42,936 nt of DNA from a bacterium (GCA_030648795.1 JAUSHC010000022.1:1-42936); one strand, 5' to 3'. Counted from the first letter of the stretch, positions 14,048 to 28,889 are shown. Numbers and translations are program-made. Notes: generated from the letters alone by a model not told the origin.

Positions 14048-14065
14048 ATTTCTAACGGGACGGGG

Positions 14066-14141
14066 TTCACCCCGTTAGAAGCCGCCCTGCCAACGGCAGT
14101 GCTACAGGCACCTCGGGGCGCCTTGCCTCTAACGGGGTTCA
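14066..14141. mobile_element. MITE-like 68-nt element, copy 1 (intergenic)
   Basis: TTCA-ccccgttaga...tctaacgggg-TTCA; 60/68 identical to the copy at 17349. Confidence 0.75.
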
Positions 14142-14194
14142 CAACACAGAAAAAAAAGAGTATGATAAAAGCATTCTAATCTCTCTACATATTT

Positions 14195-15313
14195 ATGCCT
14201 CCAGCAAAATCTATTTTTACCCACGGCGGTGTTGCGCAGTCATCAGAGAAGAAAGAAGTCAAGGAAGCACAGAAAGCGGGTATCTGCGTTGTTTTGAAAA
14301 AGCGCGATAAGTCCTTTTTGCGGCATCATGCGGATACGCCGGAGGAGTGTCTCCCGGTGCTTGCCACTGCTCATCTTTCATGGGTCGATTTTGCCGTTGA
14401 GGACGTGTATCGCGATGGAAAGGTGATCGCAAAAACGTTTGGGTTCTCTAATGAGCTCGTCGGACGTATTCTCTCTGATGACAAGTCAAACTATTATGAT
14501 TTTAATGAAGAATTCGGCATGCGCTTTCCTTCGGTGCGTGTTGATAAATTGAACGTGGAGGTTATTCCTTTGGCAATCTTTGTGCATAAAGGACTCGTAC
14601 TTACGATACACGCAGAGACGTCCAATCGTCTTGTAAAATTCTCTCGATATGCAGATAGTTTTTTTCAGAAAATTCCAAAAGAGGCAGGAGAGCCTGAACA
14701 GCTGACAATCCTCCTTGCCCGTATCATTAACGAAAATAATGATCGAAACTTTGATTATCTTCGGGATCTTGAAGAGCAAGGTGACGCGCTTTCATCACAG
14801 CTCGTGAAAAATGAGATAGAGCGGGAAAAGGTGGGGCAAGACGTCTATCGCATGAAGCATGCGCTTATCCGCTATTTGGATACGCTTTGGGTGAGCCTTG
14901 ATGTTATTAGCGCACTGCGACATGGCGATCCGAATTTATTGACGAACGATAAAGAAATTTTGCGACAGTTTACACTCATGGCGGATGATATAAACCGTCA
15001 GATCCAGCTTTCAGAACATATGTCTTCCGTACTTGTTTCGGGATTAGAAGTCATGCAAACGATTTACAACAATCAATTGCAGGTATTGAATAATCGCATG
15101 ACGCACGTGATGACATGGTTGACGGTACTTGGCACTGCGGTGTTGGTGCCGAATACGCTTGCAACGGTGATGAGTTCACTTTCTGATTTACAGCCGATGC
15201 ATCATCTTTGGTATATTTCTATTCTTGTCCTTTCGACTCTTGTGTCGACTGTCGGCGCGTATTGGTGGGTGAAAAATAAGGCGCGCTTACCGGCAAAGAT
15301 GAAAGAAGAATAA
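14195..15313 (+). CDS. CorA-family divalent cation transporter
   Basis: SWVDF, VLTIH, long coiled stalk, NNQLQVLNNRMTHVMTWLT and two C-terminal TM helices; GMN absent. Confidence 0.8.
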   Translation: MPPAKSIFTHGGVAQSSEKKEVKEAQKAGICVVLKKRDKSFLRHHADTPEECLPVLATAHLSWVDFAVEDVYRDGKVIAKTFGFSNELVGRILSDDKSNYYDFNEEFGMRFPSVRVDKLNVEVIPLAIFVHKGLVLTIHAETSNRLVKFSRYADSFFQKIPKEAGEPEQLTILLARIINENNDRNFDYLRDLEEQGDALSSQLVKNEIEREKVGQDVYRMKHALIRYLDTLWVSLDVISALRHGDPNLLTNDKEILRQFTLMADDINRQIQLSEHMSSVLVSGLEVMQTIYNNQLQVLNNRMTHVMTWLTVLGTAVLVPNTLATVMSSLSDLQPMHHLWYISILVLSTLVSTVGAYWWVKNKARLPAKMKEE

Positions 15314-15318
15314 TCATT

Positions 15319-16335
15319 ATGTCGCAACCTATTTTCGATCAAAAAATTATTCTCGTCACCGGAGGCGCTGGATTTATCGGTTCTTTCTTGTGCGAAGAGC
15401 TTGCAAAGAACGCTACAGTAATTTGCGTTGATAATTTTGTATCGGGATCGCAGACGAACATCGACGCGCTTTTCCGCAATCCGAATTTCATTTTTTTGAA
15501 GCACGATTTGCGCGAGCCATTTGATCCGGAAGCGTTTCCGGAACTTGAACGCCTGAAGATTAAATTTCAAGGAATTCAAGAGATTTATCATCTTGCGTGT
15601 CCGACATCGCCGAAAGAATTTGATAAATATAGAATTGAAACACTTGAAGCAAATTCCGTAGTAATGAAGCACGTGCTTGATCTGGCAGTGAAGTACAAAT
15701 CGAAAGTCGTGAATGCGTCATCGTCGGTTGTATACGGTCCGCGTCCAGAAGAAAATGCGTTTTTTGTTGAAGAGTATCTTGGTTCGGTTGATTTTTTAAG
15801 TCCGCGTGCGTGCTATGACGAAGGAAAGCGGTTTACGGAAACCATGGTTGCCACCTATGCGCAAGTGCATGGTGTTGATGGGAAGAATGCACGTATCTTT
15901 CGAACGTATGGTCCGCGCATGCGTTTGTTTGATGGGCAAATGATTCCCGATTTTATTACAAACGCGCTCGACGGAAAAGATCTGGTGATTTATGGTGACG
16001 AAACATTTTACACATCGCTTGTGTATGTGACGGATGTGGTGGAGGGACTCGTAAAACTTATGGCAGCGCCGAAAGATATCGGTTCAGTGAATATTGGTTC
16101 GGATCAAGATTTAAAATTAGCAGAGGTTGCAAAAATGATTATTGAGTTGACGAAATCTTCTTCGAAAGTTGCATTTGAAGAGCCGCTTCTTTTCATGACG
16201 CCGCTCGGGCTTCCGGATCTTACGAAAGCGAAAGAGCGTTTGGGCTGGATTCCGATTGTGACATTGGGGCAAGGGCTTACAAAGACGATTGAATATACCA
16301 TGGCGAACAAAACAATATTAGGGATGCGCTCGTAG
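15319..16335 (+). CDS. UDP-glucuronate decarboxylase-like NAD-dependent epimerase/dehydratase
   Basis: TGGAGFIGS, IYHLACPTSP, RACYDEGKR, ARIFRTYGPRM. Confidence 0.92.
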   Translation: MSQPIFDQKIILVTGGAGFIGSFLCEELAKNATVICVDNFVSGSQTNIDALFRNPNFIFLKHDLREPFDPEAFPELERLKIKFQGIQEIYHLACPTSPKEFDKYRIETLEANSVVMKHVLDLAVKYKSKVVNASSSVVYGPRPEENAFFVEEYLGSVDFLSPRACYDEGKRFTETMVATYAQVHGVDGKNARIFRTYGPRMRLFDGQMIPDFITNALDGKDLVIYGDETFYTSLVYVTDVVEGLVKLMAAPKDIGSVNIGSDQDLKLAEVAKMIIELTKSSSKVAFEEPLLFMTPLGLPDLTKAKERLGWIPIVTLGQGLTKTIEYTMANKTILGMRS

Positions 16336-16344
16336 AGATTCTGT

Positions 16345-17022
16345 ATGAAACGTGTCGCGGTGATTCCTGCGTATAATGAAGAACGAACGATAGGGACGGT
16401 GCTTTCCGAGCTCCGTCCGTTTGTGGATGCCATGATTGTGATCGACGATGGGTCACGTGACGCAACTGCGGCGATTGCAGAGCGCGAAGGTGCGATCGTT
16501 TATCGACATTTTTTAAATCGTGGGTTGGGGGCGGCATTGGGGACTGGCATGGAAGTTGCGCTGCGCCAGGGTGCTGATGTTCTTATTACGTTTGATGCGG
16601 ATGGACAGCATCGCGCGAACGATATTCCTGCAATCGTTGCTCCACTACTCCGTGGTACGGCAGACGTTGTTATTGGTGTGCGCACAAAAAATAAGCATGC
16701 GATGCCTGTCGGAAGGCGCATCGCGAATACGATGGCGAATGTCATTACTTTTTTTCTTTTTGGTATTTGGACGTCGGACAGTCAGTCAGGGTTTCGCGCG
16801 TTTACGTCCCAAGCGGCAAGAGCGCTGGATCTCGCGCGCTATCATTTTGAGAATATGGAAGTATCGAGTGCAATTCTTTCTCAAGTTGCGCGCCATAAAC
16901 TTCGTTTTTTTGAGGTGGCGATCGAGCCTGTCTATACGTCCTATTCACTTTCAAAAGGGCAGGGATTTCGTGAAGGGATTCGGACGTTTGTTCGTTTAAT
17001 TATCTATCGCGTTCTCCACTGA
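16345..17022 (+). CDS. Glycosyltransferase family 2 (DPM1-like polyprenol-phosphate glycosyltransferase)
   Basis: IPAYNEE, DDGSRD, FDADGQH, DSQSGFRAF. Confidence 0.92.
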   Translation: MKRVAVIPAYNEERTIGTVLSELRPFVDAMIVIDDGSRDATAAIAEREGAIVYRHFLNRGLGAALGTGMEVALRQGADVLITFDADGQHRANDIPAIVAPLLRGTADVVIGVRTKNKHAMPVGRRIANTMANVITFFLFGIWTSDSQSGFRAFTSQAARALDLARYHFENMEVSSAILSQVARHKLRFFEVAIEPVYTSYSLSKGQGFREGIRTFVRLIIYRVLH

Positions 17023-17357
17023 TGCTTATTCAATACCTTCTTATTCTTTTTGTCTTTTTTGCGTTGTCCCGAGTGGTGATGCGCGCGAAGGCACATGAAA
17101 TAACGACGCGCGAATTTTTATTTTGGTTCTTTTTTTGGTTGTGTGCGGCGATCGTCATTGCATGGCCGAATAGTTTGAATCGCTTTGCGGATGTTCTTGG
17201 CGTCGGGAGGGGGGTTGATGTCGTACTGTACGCTGCACTCGTGATTCTTTTTTATGTGGTGTTCCGTATTTTTACTCGCATCGAACGGATCGAACGCGAT
17301 ATCACGTTGCTTGTTCGGCGAAAGGCGTTAGAAGAAAACGACCATGAACCCCGTTAG
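17022..17357 (+). CDS. DUF2304 family membrane protein
   Basis: LGVGRGVD, IERDITLLVR; typical partner of DPM1-like GT2. Confidence 0.85.
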   Translation: MLIQYLLILFVFFALSRVVMRAKAHEITTREFLFWFFFWLCAAIVIAWPNSLNRFADVLGVGRGVDVVLYAALVILFYVVFRIFTRIERIERDITLLVRRKALEENDHEPR

Positions 17358-18567
17358 AAGCCGCCCTGCCAAAGGCACGGCTACGGCCGCCTCGGGGCGC
17401 CCTGCTTCTAACGGGGTGAACCCCGCTAAGATTTCTGTTGTTCTTCTTACATACAATGGGAAGAAGTATCTTCCTGATTTATTCGCAAGCCTGCAAAAGA
17501 CTGCGTGCGCGTATCCATGGCAATTGATTGTCGTGGATAATGCGTCGACGGATGGCACAGCCGAGTGGCTTACGAATTATGAATCAGGAATTAAGAATCA
17601 GGGGGATCGTCAACTCCATAATTCATTATTCATAATTCATAATTCTACTAACGCGGGTTTTGCCGCCGGCAACAATGTCGGTATCCGTAAAGCGCTTGCA
17701 GACGGCGCAGAGTACGTTGTTCTTTTGAATCAAGATACGGTTGTGGATCCGAATTGGCTCACAGAACTTGTTGTAGCCGCGGAAAGCGACGAAACTATTG
17801 GTGCCGTGCAGGCGCGACTCATGCTTTGGGATAAAAAAGATACAGTAAACTCCCTCGGCAACGAGATTCACTTTCTCGGCTTTGGGTATACGAGTGGATA
17901 TAAAAAAACTTATGCCGCCTACGGACGGCACCCCGTCAACGGCGGTGGCAACTTAACCGCCTACCGGATAGGCAGGCAACTTACAACTGACAACTATCCA
18001 GAGATCACCTACGCCTCCGGCGCCGCTGTCTTATACCGCGCAAAAGCACTCCGCGAGGTCGGGCTCTTCGATGAGTCGCTTTGGATGTATCACGATGATT
18101 TGGATCTTGGATGGCGACTCTGGCGCGCGGGATGGAAAAATGTTTTAGCACACGTATCCGTTGTTTACCACAAATACGAATTTTCGCGGAGCATTAAAAA
18201 ATATTATTTCATGGAACGCAATCGTTTTTTGGTGTTGTTTGAGAATTATTCGTTGCGAACGCTCGTACTGATCGCTCCTGCGCTCGTCGTGATGGAGCTT
18301 GGACTTTTTGTGAAAGCGATTGTGTCGGGGTGGGGGAAGGAAAAACTGCGGGCGTATGCGTATTTTTTTCAACTTTCGGCATGGCGAATGGTTTTAGAAA
18401 AGCGCAAAGAGAAACAGAAATTTTTCCGTTGTCCCGAACGAGAATTGTTAGCGCGCTTTACGGGCGTGATTGCATTTCAAGATCTGCAAAGCTCCGTGCT
18501 TACGTATATCGCAAATCCGATATTTAATGCGTATTGGCAGATCATCCAATATATACTTCGAGTGTAG
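17344..18567 (+). CDS. Glycosyltransferase family 2 (WbbL/rhamnosyltransferase-like) with three in-frame inserts
   Basis: VDNASTDGT, GFAAGNNVG, LLNQD, GLFDE, YHDDLDLGWR; start may be the GTG at 17416. Confidence 0.92.
   Translation: MNPVRSRPAKGTATAASGRPASNGVNPAKISVVLLTYNGKKYLPDLFASLQKTACAYPWQLIVVDNASTDGTAEWLTNYESGIKNQGDRQLHNSLFIIHNSTNAGFAAGNNVGIRKALADGAEYVVLLNQDTVVDPNWLTELVVAAESDETIGAVQARLMLWDKKDTVNSLGNEIHFLGFGYTSGYKKTYAAYGRHPVNGGGNLTAYRIGRQLTTDNYPEITYASGAAVLYRAKALREVGLFDESLWMYHDDLDLGWRLWRAGWKNVLAHVSVVYHKYEFSRSIKKYYFMERNRFLVLFENYSLRTLVLIAPALVVMELGLFVKAIVSGWGKEKLRAYAYFFQLSAWRMVLEKRKEKQKFFRCPERELLARFTGVIAFQDLQSSVLTYIANPIFNAYWQIIQYILRV
17345..17420. mobile_element. MITE-like 68-nt element, copy 2 (in frame at the GT2 N-terminus)
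   Basis: TGAA-ccccgttagaag...cttctaacgggg-TGAA; encodes NPVRSRPAKGTATAASGRPASNGV. Confidence 0.75.
17574..17645. repeat. Heptamer-built hairpin insert, copy 2 (in frame)
   Basis: gaattat gaatcag gaattaa gaatcag .. ataattc attattc ataattc ataattc; 72 nt. Confidence 0.85.
17907..17996 (+). repeat. Composite insert: CAACTTA-type heptamers interrupted by two GC-rich hairpins
   Basis: aactta-tgccgcc..ggtggca-acttaa-ccgcctaccggataggcagg-caacttacaactgacaacta. Confidence 0.7.
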
Positions 18568-20797: not shown

Positions 20798-21468
20798 ATG
20801 CGTATCTGTCTTATCAGCAATCTTTATCCTCCCTATACTCGTGGCGGGGCGGAGCGGGTGGTTGCAACGATTGCGAAGGAATTGCAACGCGCAGGGCATA
20901 GCGTGATCGTGATCACAACCGTGCCATCGTTTGCGGCGAATATAAAGGCGCTTGCGTCTGGTGGGTTTCTTCATGAAACGGTTGACGGCATCACCGTGTA
21001 TCGCATCGCAACCGCGAACCTTTTTCCGTACTGGACCATTGGCGAACATAATGTTGTGATGCGTTTCATTTGGCATGTGTTTGATATGTTTGCCTTTGAA
21101 ACCGCAGCAACAGTACGTCGCATTTTGCGAAAAGAAAAAGCGGACGTGGTGATGACGCACAATTTGAAGGGGATTGGGTTCTTGGTCCCGCGGGCGATTC
21201 GACGTCTTGGTATTCGGCATATTCATACGGCACACGATGTCCAGCTTGCAGTGCCTTCCGGTCTCATTTTTGTTAGGCAGAAACCGGTGTTCATTCTTTT
21301 GTTCCTTATGCAGTGGTATGAGCGATTGACGCGCTGGCTTATCGGTTCGCCGGACGTGGTCGTCTCACCATCGCAATGGCTCCTTGATTTTTATACCGAA
21401 CGAGGATTTTTTTCGCAGTCCAAAAAAGTTGTCTTGCATAATCCGATTTTACAAGGGGCACCCTTGCA
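20798..21468 (+). CDS. Glycosyltransferase family 4, N-terminal domain only, cut by the fold point (the ORF reads on to 21598 in mirrored sequence)
   Basis: SNLYPPYTRGGAE, HTAHD, VSPSQW, VLHNPI; no C-terminal ExF-type motif. Confidence 0.85.
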
Positions 21469-21485
21469 TGCAAGGGTGCCCCTTG
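21452..21485. repeat. REP-like doublet of 15-nt quasi-palindromes at the symmetry centre
   Basis: caaggggcacccttg-catg-caagggtgccccttg. Confidence 0.65.
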
Positions 21486-24369: not shown

Positions 24370-25593
24370 CTACACTCGAAGTATATATTGGATGATCTGC
24401 CAATACGCATTAAATATCGGATTTGCGATATACGTAAGCACGGAGCTTTGCAGATCTTGAAATGCAATCACGCCCGTAAAGCGCGCTAACAATTCTCGTT
24501 CGGGACAACGGAAAAATTTCTGTTTCTCTTTGCGCTTTTCTAAAACCATTCGCCATGCCGAAAGTTGAAAAAAATACGCATACGCCCGCAGTTTTTCCTT
24601 CCCCCACCCCGACACAATCGCTTTCACAAAAAGTCCAAGCTCCATCACGACGAGCGCAGGAGCGATCAGTACGAGCGTTCGCAACGAATAATTCTCAAAC
24701 AACACCAAAAAACGATTGCGTTCCATGAAATAATATTTTTTAATGCTCCGCGAAAATTCGTATTTGTGGTAAACAACGGATACGTGTGCTAAAACATTTT
24801 TCCATCCCGCGCGCCAGAGTCGCCATCCAAGATCCAAATCATCGTGATACATCCAAAGCGACTCATCGAAGAGCCCGACCTCGCGGAGTGCTTTTGCGCG
24901 GTATAAGACAGCGGCGCCGGAGGCGTAGGTGATCTCTGGATAGTTGTCAGTTGTAAGTTGCCTGCCTATCCGGTAGGCGGTTAAGTTGCCACCGCCGTTG
25001 ACGGGGTGCCGTCCGTAGGCGGCATAAGTTTTTTTATATCCACTCGTATACCCAAAGCCGAGAAAGTGAATCTCGTTGCCGAGGGAGTTTACTGTATCTT
25101 TTTTATCCCAAAGCATGAGTCGCGCCTGCACGGCACCAATAGTTTCGTCGCTTTCCGCGGCTACAACAAGTTCTGTGAGCCAATTCGGATCCACAACCGT
25201 ATCTTGATTCAAAAGAACAACGTACTCTGCGCCGTCTGCAAGCGCTTTACGGATACCGACATTGTTGCCGGCGGCAAAACCCGCGTTAGTAGAATTATGA
25301 ATTATGAATAATGAATTATGGAGTTGACGATCCCCCTGATTCTTAATTCCTGATTCATAATTCGTAAGCCACTCGGCTGTGCCATCCGTCGACGCATTAT
25401 CCACGACAATCAATTGCCATGGATACGCGCACGCAGTCTTTTGCAGGCTTGCGAATAAATCAGGAAGATACTTCTTCCCATTGTATGTAAGAAGAACAAC
25501 AGAAATCTTAGCGGGGTTCACCCCGTTAGAAGCAGGGCGCCCCGAGGCGGCCGTAGCCGTGCCTTTGGCAGGGCGGCTTCTAACGGGGTTCAT
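24370..25593 (-). CDS. Glycosyltransferase family 2 (mirror copy)
   Basis: Mirror of 17344-18567. Confidence 0.85.
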   Translation of the reverse strand: MNPVRSRPAKGTATAASGRPASNGVNPAKISVVLLTYNGKKYLPDLFASLQKTACAYPWQLIVVDNASTDGTAEWLTNYESGIKNQGDRQLHNSLFIIHNSTNAGFAAGNNVGIRKALADGAEYVVLLNQDTVVDPNWLTELVVAAESDETIGAVQARLMLWDKKDTVNSLGNEIHFLGFGYTSGYKKTYAAYGRHPVNGGGNLTAYRIGRQLTTDNYPEITYASGAAVLYRAKALREVGLFDESLWMYHDDLDLGWRLWRAGWKNVLAHVSVVYHKYEFSRSIKKYYFMERNRFLVLFENYSLRTLVLIAPALVVMELGLFVKAIVSGWGKEKLRAYAYFFQLSAWRMVLEKRKEKQKFFRCPERELLARFTGVIAFQDLQSSVLTYIANPIFNAYWQIIQYILRV

Positions 25594-28742: not shown

Positions 28743-28889
28743 AAATATGTAGAGAGATTAGAATGCTTTTATCATACTCTTTTTTTTCTGTGTTGTGAAC
28801 CCCGTTAGAGGCAAGGCGCCCCGAGGTGCCTGTAGCACTGCCGTTGGCAGGGCGGCTTCTAACGGGGTGAACCCCGTCCCGTTAGAAAT

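Follow-up and report, generated by a model that had tools for sequence, protein, structure and literature searches.

How did a short repeat with inverted ends come to lie within the start codon of a glycosyltransferase gene, and what moves such repeats? The question is raised by a contig of 42,936 nt (GCA_030648795.1, JAUSHC010000022.1:1-42936; this whole stretch is referred to as the window), which carries two 68-nt repeats, one of them at the start of a gene for a GT2 glycosyltransferase. The window is contig C37 of a genome of 1.11 Mb in 92 contigs (G000), which was examined together with the genome of a sister species (G001, with the orthologous contig G001:C22) and a genome from another family in the same class (G025, with about 60 small copies of the element). 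In addition, 401 genomes of the class served as the sample for a pattern search for paired ends and for a test of co-occurrence. The two repeats are non-autonomous copies, i.e., miniature inverted-repeat transposable elements (MITEs), of a transposable-element family of the Patescibacteria (candidate phyla radiation, CPR), which are ultra-small groundwater bacteria. We further consider it probable that three things belong together in this family, namely the 68-nt MITEs, a mode of insertion that rebuilds start codons, and longer relatives that encode a GIY-YIG nuclease and act as the autonomous drivers.

The two repeats occupy positions 14070-14137 (copy 1) and 17349-17416 (copy 2), both on the plus strand. 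Both start with CCCCGTTAGA, finish with TCTAACGGGG, and are identical at 60 of 68 positions, just as a preliminary description made from the sequence had reported. Copy 1 occupies the space between the genes for LssY_C/PAP2 and CorA and is flanked directly by TTCA (14066-14069 and 14138-14141). Copy 2 lies in the GT2 start codon and is flanked directly by TGAA (17345-17348 and 17417-17420). The sister genome provides the empty sites: G001:C22 is collinear with the window region (72–82% identity) and is without both copies. At the GT2 site, G001 reads ...GATCA TGAA AAACGG, with a single TGAA, and is exactly 72 nt shorter. Empty orthologous sites and duplicated flanks together establish mobility, and the possibility that orthologous sites never lack the element is refuted.

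A genome-wide scan of G000 for the ends and their flanks identified 24 distinct elements of 29–145 nt, which have only their ends (YCCCGTTAGAAG...CTTCTAACGGGR) in common. The interiors are unrelated and form several groups, including GC-rich 68-nt hairpins, T...A-ended copies of 119–123 nt, and a 100–130-nt group rich in AT. The terminal inverted repeats (CCCCGTTAGAAGC/GCTTCTAACGGGG) are 12–13 nt long (10–13 nt in the window copies), with columns that pair in 98% of cells over eight copies. A perfect 4-nt direct repeat flanks 22 of the 24 elements (chance of equality for two 4-mers 0.0047; p ~1e-49), and the TTCA and TGAA flanks in the window are thus true target-site duplications rather than random sequence. 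The exceptions are C38:17850, which has a 5-nt repeat (TCCAG), and one 29-nt element that consists of little beyond two ends and has a repeat of 3 nt. Moreover, one copy is nested within another: C65:897-963, with the duplication CCTG, interrupts C65:864-1008, and an uninterrupted relative of the outer element (C65:1278-1351) is found 300 nt away. Four features of prokaryotic MITEs are found here, namely short length without coding capacity, terminal inverted repeats, a duplication of fixed length, and presence or absence at orthologous sites; the longer partner with the same ends, described below, encodes a nuclease that is only a candidate for the part of the transposase. Small copies occur in 97 of the 401 genomes, and some genomes have more than 60. 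In G217 (locus L055:1500-1831), two inverted family MITEs of about 107 nt surround a tRNA gene and make up a 332-nt stretch with family ends.

Both strands of both window copies fold (as DNA) far better than shuffled sequences do (z −5.1 to −7.6). The preliminary description held that the internal stems survive the substitutions between the copies. This is true of the first stem, which is unchanged across copies with a variable loop, but not of the second, for which a fixed register pairs in only 69% of cells and no column-by-column compensation is found. In copy 2 the second stem pairs again after a shift of one base, and a copy on contig C46 (66/68 identical to copy 2) has the same variant; the change therefore represents one inherited event. 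A further degenerate element end had been described beside each copy. The one before copy 1, TCTAACGGGA at 14051-14060, appears to be a genuine leftover of such an end: TCCCGTTAGA matches there on the minus strand with one mismatch, and the stretch is missing from G001. This older remnant (TTTCTAACGGGA, then CGGGG) spans 14049-14065, just 3' of the LssY_C/PAP2 stop codon. In contrast, CCCCGCTAAG, which follows copy 2, belongs to the native coding sequence of GT2 and aligns to G001 without indels (MNPAKISVV versus MKNGKVAV). The window copies are old MITE copies that are probably immobile. Contigs from other loci or organisms in two groundwater runs (8 in one and 5 in the other) agree with copy 2 at its ends and omit 32 nt of its interior (17364-17397), such that shorter relatives of the 68-nt copy are common in that community; sequencing depth over both element bins is several-fold above that of the flanks in these runs.

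The flanks reveal a target preference. Each site was oriented so that the duplication reads T..A, and the sites of G000 (n = 22) were compared with those of G025 (n = 39). The duplication is T(G or C)AA at 15/22 sites in G000 and 23/39 in G025 (background 2.2%); it is preceded by a purine at 19/22 and 32/39 sites (p 7e-4 to 7e-5) and followed by a pyrimidine at 17/22 and 27/39 sites (p ~1e-3), respectively. The preferred target is R-T(G or C)AA-Y, i.e., R-TSAA-Y, in which the hyphens mark the borders of the duplication. The preference is for A-TGAA in G000 and for G-TCAA in G025, and TGAA/TTCA is the most frequent flank in G000 (11/22). The elements start with Y and end with R, such that the empty target and both new junctions all read R-TSAA-Y. 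The target also resembles the element's own junction, GGGR-TSAA-YCCC, and YCCC follows the duplication at 3/22 sites in G000 (0.7% background). In G025, tandem copies with one common 4-nt spacer are found at L059, L061, and the end of L002. The preliminary description had envisaged a mobile, site-preferring element that inserts beside its own ends, and this view is supported by the R-TSAA-Y preference and the G001 sites, as well as by these tandem copies and the end remnant that copy 1 adjoins. The same description proposed a recombinase- or nuclease-like site with a fixed asymmetric 4-nt core. There is no such fixed core and no recombinase was seen, but a nuclease, described below, is the only protein tied to the ends. 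At least nine different 4-mers flank the 22 G000 copies, and 16 are found in G025. The 68-nt subfamily alone has TTCA, TGAA, TTGA, CTGG, and TCGA, and a G025 subfamily has TTGA seven times and TCAA three times. Members of one subfamily differ in their 4-mer, which is found in either orientation with respect to the interior, and each insertion must therefore take the 4-mer afresh from its target.

ATGAAY fits the target, and the element terminates in A or G; a start codon hit by an insertion is therefore rebuilt as ATG or GTG. In G000, 9 of the 24 copies lie exactly on the start of an open reading frame (ORF) of at least 115 codons. All eight insertions at ATGAA are on an ORF start, and in each the element's last base plus TG restores the start codon, as ATG in five T...A-ended copies and as GTG in three C...G-ended copies. 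The ninth copy (contig C48, duplication CATG) retains the ATG inside the duplication. By comparison, 257 of the 3,495 ATGAA sites in G000 (7.4%) are the first ATG of an ORF of at least 100 codons, a class that is a crude ORF count and not a gene call. With sites inside long ORFs set aside, this share rises to 31%, for which the p value of 8/8 is 9e-5. Length plus four is divisible by three in only 12 of the 24 copies, and most genic copies are on a start codon and not within a gene.

Copy 2 shows what such an insertion does to a host locus. The element now stands between the original ATG of the GT2 gene (17344-17346, plus strand) and the remainder of that gene. The final nucleotide of the element joins the TG of the duplication to form a rebuilt GTG (17416-17418, plus strand), which opens a frame of 383 codons. 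It had been predicted that 68 + 4 = 72 nt would keep the reading frame, and the ORF at 17344-18567 (plus strand; 407 codons from the old ATG, with the Pfam GT2 domain from residue 31) indeed stays open across copy 2, with 24 codons added. The old ATG is in frame and yields the N-terminus MNPVRSRPAKG..., and either this ATG or the rebuilt GTG may be the start in use. The upstream DUF2304 gene (17022-17357, plus strand), which formerly overlapped the GT2 start, now takes its stop codon TAG (17355-17357) from the left terminal repeat of copy 2 and has the same length as before, its product ending in DHEPR compared with DHEKR in G001.

Longer copies with an ORF, which the preliminary description had proposed to look for, are found in relatives and metagenomes but not in G000. 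These are elements of 279–287 nt with the same ends, and their sole gene encodes a GIY-YIG nuclease of 85–90 amino acids. When the 401 genomes were searched for ends 200–400 nt apart, the coding matches were GIY-YIG elements of 280–281 nt in G170 and G291, and the remaining matches were pairs of small copies. The 86-aa ORF is intact in two of the G170/G291 elements and interrupted by two stops in a third copy. The protein matches Pfam GIY-YIG over residues 1–71 of 86 (E 1.7e-15) as a single domain; in NCBIfam it has only a sub-threshold match to a group I intron endonuclease. The stop codon of the gene is a TAA within the right repeat. In databases, the protein is named "GIY-YIG nuclease family protein", "putative endonuclease", or "excinuclease ABC subunit C". 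G025 contains a full-length tandem copy with the ends TCCCGTTAGAGAC.

The link between the repeats and this gene extends to public genomes, in which 41 loci with relatives of the nuclease were found. Both repeats are present within 60 nt of the ORF ends at 22 loci, all of which encode proteins at least 58% identical. Among the remaining loci, five have one repeat, and 14, with 49% identity or less, have none. A perfect 4-nt duplication flanks 15 of the 22 two-repeat loci, and 13 of the 22 are on the start of a long ORF. At L086, L089, and L093, the host start codon reads across the repeat (MNPVR...) into the entire nuclease; at L085, L101, and L108, the same read-through begins but is interrupted. 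Gene calls of 93 aa in the databases begin with MNPVRN or MSPVRN, and the GT2 ORF in the window now begins with MNPVRS. Where an element has duplicated TATG, the old ATG yields only MPR followed by a stop, and a separate ATG two codons further along belongs to the nuclease. In metagenomes, ends 270–298 nt apart were found at 80 loci from at least 120 stretches, with the nuclease in 45 of the 80 and intact in 42. Oriented by the ORF, the duplications among the matches listed are TGAA 11 times and TTCA never. At least 60 distinct intact nucleases and at least 220 nuclease clusters at 90% identity were counted. An AlphaFold model of the nuclease (pLDDT 90) has its nearest solved folds in UPF0213 BH0048, Slx1, and At-HIGLE, followed by I-TevI and UvrC (Foldseek E 6e-4 to 5e-2 and TM to query 0.53–0.71 for the nearest folds). 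By sequence, the match in the PDB is 1zg2 (E 8e-5). By this model, the nuclease is a bare catalytic domain of the structure-specific branch.

Mobility, duplication of the target and its preferred form, the rebuilding of start codons, the ends common to nuclease-bearing elements, and co-occurrence across genomes (given below) are directly shown. From these observations we infer a mechanism in which the nuclease is the driver, and this extends to its binding and cutting, the polarity of the stagger, the choice between cut-and-paste and copy-and-paste, and the joining. The nuclease would recognize the 12-nt arms of the terminal repeats and cut at R-TSAA-Y, both where the element ends and in the target, in which the cuts would be staggered by 4 nt. 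Host polymerase and ligase would then fill in and join, leaving TSAA duplicated on both sides. At ATGAAY, the old ATG remains upstream and an ATG or GTG is rebuilt directly before the gene. Copy 2 inserted in this way in the GT2 gene, and copy 1 inserted in an intergenic TGAA beside an older element end. In the autonomous 279–287-nt relatives, the nuclease may often be translated from the ATG of the host gene; such elements would borrow the host's ribosome-binding site and ATG for expression and return a rebuilt start codon to the host. Whether the 86-aa GIY-YIG protein itself mobilizes the family, which would make the ~281-bp elements a new class of DNA transposon, run by a GIY-YIG nuclease rather than by a DDE, HUH, serine, or tyrosine enzyme, and the 68-nt copies their non-autonomous satellites, appears to us an evenly balanced question.

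Among the 401 genomes, the small copies and the nuclease co-occur. At least one small copy is present in 22 of 32 genomes with a close nuclease (E <= 1e-20) versus 75 of 369 without (Fisher p 3e-8), and at least 10 small copies are present in 9 of 32 versus 12 of 369 (Fisher p 6e-6), although related genomes are not independent and these tests consequently overstate the case. Besides this dependence, several points weigh against the nuclease as driver. A close nuclease is missing from 12 of the 21 genomes with at least 10 small copies, including G000, and 10 of the 32 nuclease-bearing genomes have no small copy by the pattern used. G000 is an orphan host: it has 24 small copies, and its contigs contain no nuclease gene bounded by family ends. 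Eight small GIY-YIG genes are present in G000, with 37–45% identity to the element nuclease, and these are without family repeats. The assembled contigs of one run, the probable source, contain neither a joint that omits the 72 nt (an empty allele) nor a circle junction, although rare forms would not be visible in contigs. For end pairs separated by more than 400 nt, the check covered G000 and G025. The excess at start codons, counted with the crude ORF class described above, may partly result from selection after insertion. To our knowledge, no GIY-YIG enzyme carries out transposition. Enzymes of this type hydrolyze DNA and do not join it, and the joining would have to be the host's. Finally, a 4-nt duplication combined with terminal inverted repeats is the typical trace of a DDE transposase.

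This last point leads to the explanation that an ordinary transposase that escaped detection, such as a DDE enzyme of an insertion sequence (IS) family that duplicates 4 bp, moves both forms, with the GIY-YIG gene as a passenger or a homing-type freeloader. We consider this unlikely, even though inverted repeats with a short duplication of fixed length are the classic DDE signature, G000 maintains its 24 copies with no family-end nuclease gene, a close nuclease is missing in 12 of the 21 high-copy genomes, and metagenome bins often miss IS copies. No IS1380-type transposase (NF033539, E <= 0.01) was found in five genomes (G000, G001, G002, G016, and G025), among them the two richest in copies of those closely examined, whereas control genomes were positive. 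DDE_Tnp_1 has six matches in G025, but none of seven DDE_Tnp_1 loci has family ends. End pairs 400–4,000 nt apart in G000 are nothing but pairs of separate small copies, and in G000 and G025 the end pairs beyond 400 nt are small copies that flank dnaA or other host genes; a large transposon was rejected as a reading of the G025 pairs 1.6 kb apart (C11 and C21), which are separate small copies around a GNAT gene and dnaA. The nuclease is the only gene found between the ends, both in the 401 genomes and among the matches listed for the 80 metagenome loci. In addition, the repeats interlock with the start and stop of this gene in at least 60 distinct variants, which would be unexpected for a passenger.

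Alternatively, the nuclease may be the driver but act on single-stranded or extruded-hairpin DNA, clipping the base of the hairpin in a peel-and-paste manner like IS200/IS605, rather than on duplex DNA. The nearest folds, Slx1 and HIGLE, are structure-specific nucleases, and Ssn nucleases cut single-stranded DNA beside hairpin repeats that flank their own gene (PMC11893778). The small copies do fold as strong hairpins (z −5 to −7.6), and at C38:17850 the inner repeat stays complementary through three double changes, all from that copy. However, known single-strand transposition leaves no target duplication, whereas 22 of 24 elements here have one. The insertion in both orientations relative to an asymmetric target fits a duplex target; furthermore, full-length elements do not form hairpins in their interiors, and self-complementarity is only partial in several of the AT-rich small copies. 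This route therefore seems distinctly unlikely. Strand exchange by a site-specific recombinase, with an invariant asymmetric core of 4 nt (TGAA) at which a circular junction recombines with look-alike sites, could account for TGAA/TTCA as the commonest flank in G000 (11/22), for targets that resemble the junction (YCCC at 3/22 sites versus 0.7%), and for tandem copies with one spacer. It is very improbable given the many flank forms per subfamily in both orientations, the CCTG of the nested copy, one 5-nt and one 3-nt duplication, and the lack of a recombinase gene inside any element examined. Hardly credible is the proposal that the repeats are not mobile at all and serve at gene starts as a regulatory leader or a conserved structured RNA. 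The strong fold and the recurrence at gene starts would suit it, but the empty orthologous sites, the duplications, the nested copy, and the unrelated interiors do not. Moreover, the elements have no Rfam match (window arm and 12 G025 loci, E <= 0.1), with tRNAs and sub-threshold matches located elsewhere in the G025 loci. The nuclease-driven reading of the family is retained as the probable one. Phages were also considered as a vector and rejected, with 0 full-length and 2 small copies in viral_contigs. Similarly, CCCCGTACGGGG palindromes were rejected as excision footprints; they are a separate REP-like hairpin repeat of G025, with 0 occurrences in G000. A separate small palindromic repeat, CTTGTACCCCGTACGGGGCACTTG, is scattered in G025 and is found inserted within MITE copies (L015, L018, L041, L062, and L079).

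Several known systems share parts of this organization. Bacterial MITEs include Correia/NEMIS of Neisseria, RUP of pneumococcus, and Nezha of cyanobacteria. Like these, the family described here is short, gene-less, and dispersed, with inverted ends, a fixed duplication, and ends common to a longer coding element. Unlike these, its coding partner has only about 281 nt and encodes an 86-aa GIY-YIG nuclease in place of a DDE IS, the small copies and that partner have unrelated interiors, and start codons are favored and rebuilt. The Rickettsia palindromic elements, reportedly described by Ogata and co-workers in 2000, are said to be short palindromic repeats that lie in frame inside coding genes and are translated; we know of no coding partner for them. 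Copy 2 is similarly in frame within an open ORF, and judging from the sequence its 24 extra codons may be translated. However, the sequences are unrelated, only 12 of 24 lengths are frame-keeping, and the copies are mostly on start codons. IS200/IS605 elements rely on HUH tyrosine enzymes; their insertions all face one way, beside a fixed tetra- or pentanucleotide, and leave the target unduplicated. The present family resembles IS200/IS605 and REP/RAYT in its very small size, hairpin-forming ends, and small nuclease as the sole gene, but it has a 4-nt duplication, both orientations, and a GIY-YIG nuclease. The IS1380 family and piggyBac have 4–5-bp duplications and ends starting with CC. The 4-nt duplication and ends beginning with 5'-CCC are comparable, but the target is not TTAA, and the five genomes searched have no IS1380-type transposase.

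For the nuclease itself, Slx1, At-HIGLE, and UPF0213 (BH0048) are alike as the nearest solved folds. These are proteins of host repair or of unknown function with no link to repeats, and Slx1 has an extra RING domain and works with Slx4. Homing endonuclease genes of the I-TevI type encode a nuclease domain joined to a distinct DNA-binding domain and home to a single cognate allele with no duplication, whereas the protein here is a single domain of 86 aa, with insertions at many unrelated sites that carry duplications. The closest parallel in the literature concerns Ssn. Ssn is a small single-domain GIY-YIG nuclease, classified in CDD cd10448 (GIY-YIG_unchar_3), with a gene flanked by dispersed NTS/SRM hairpin repeats, and the authors remarked that the repeat-gene-repeat arrangement resembles an insertion sequence (Chenal et al., 2025; PMC11893778). 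The function shown for it is single-strand cleavage that modulates transformation, and its repeat is an oriented hairpin motif of about 30 nt, CGTCATTCCCGCG...GCGGGAATC, with NTS being CGTCATTCCCGCGMAVGCGGGAATCYRG (PMC11893778). The element nuclease is likewise small, single-domain, and flanked by a genome-dispersed repeat. In contrast to Ssn as described there, the family here has inverted ends that enclose the gene, and its ends CCCCGTTAGAAG do not, by eye, match NTS/SRM. Text searches of PMC11893778 gave 0 matches for "duplication" and "MITE", and the relevant passage of PMC12455944 only names a GIY-YIG protein in a list of transferred genes. Full-text literature searches on GIY-YIG, MITE, and CPR elements retrieved no paper describing such elements. 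The element family is widespread in CPR and, as far as these searches show, undescribed.

If the nuclease does drive the family, transposition would be run by a hydrolytic GIY-YIG enzyme of fewer than 90 residues together with host repair. Transposition of this kind is, as far as we know, absent from current transposon classifications, and elements of about 281 bp would be the smallest autonomous mobile elements known to us. Insertions of the family fall in start codons, in junctions where genes overlap, and within other elements, in host genomes with almost no spare DNA, and this bears on the tolerance of parasites by streamlined genomes. Gene calling is also affected, through false N-terminal extensions, stranded mini-ORFs, and GTG starts. 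In addition, a small nuclease that is sequence-specific, recognizes a defined 12-nt arm, and makes a staggered cut could find use as a tool. For the window alone the import is modest, in that one of two old copies remodeled the start of the GT2 gene.

The structure of the contig affects how copies in the window are counted. The window is a perfect palindrome with two arms (1-21468 and 21469-42936) that are 100% complementary with a spacer of 0, and all features in 21469-42936 are therefore mirror images. Accordingly, the elements at 25521-25588 and 28800-28867, both on the minus strand in the second arm, are mirror images of copy 2 and copy 1, respectively, and not independent copies. The 10-mer end (at most one mismatch) has 10 matches in the window versus 1.41 expected, and 0 of 100 shuffles reach 10, but half of these matches are not independent because the contig is palindromic. 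The fold-back center (21468/21469) lies inside a small REP-like hairpin, CAAGGGGCACCCTTG (21452-21485), which has 18 occurrences in the G000 genome, and a Logan contig from the probable source run terminates at 21468. The contig-wide palindrome is most likely an assembly fold-back artifact.

Two other sets of small elements were observed in G000. The eight small GIY-YIG genes without family repeats include those at C17:23545-24809, C74:9051-9808, C32:175-387, C53:2607-2804, C67:3200-3418, and C78:11819-12031. Several of them, clearly those in C17, C32, C53, and C74, are directly upstream of a tRNA gene. These cassettes have a GC-rich structured leader, and the first 10–23 nt of the tRNA are repeated before the cassette, an arrangement that suggests entry into the 5' portion of the tRNA gene, with this portion either supplied or restored by the cassette. 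As local drivers of the MITEs, these genes were rejected, as they lack the repeats, lie beside tRNA genes, and have no link to the MITEs that could be found, although they may act in trans. The other set is a second MITE family of about 170 nt, with inverted ends of about 20 nt, CCCAGTAACAA(T)AACATCAC...GTGATGTTTTGTTACTGGG, and the duplication CATA/TATG. Its end matches that of the first family at 8 of the first 12 bases. Seven copies were found, at C68:13481-13660, C78:13105-13277, C17:5575-5748, C40:35231-35399, C74:8588-8763, C9:2632-2793, and C43:5843-6100. All seven adjoin an ATG on the gene side, which in one case begins what looks like a gene for superoxide dismutase.

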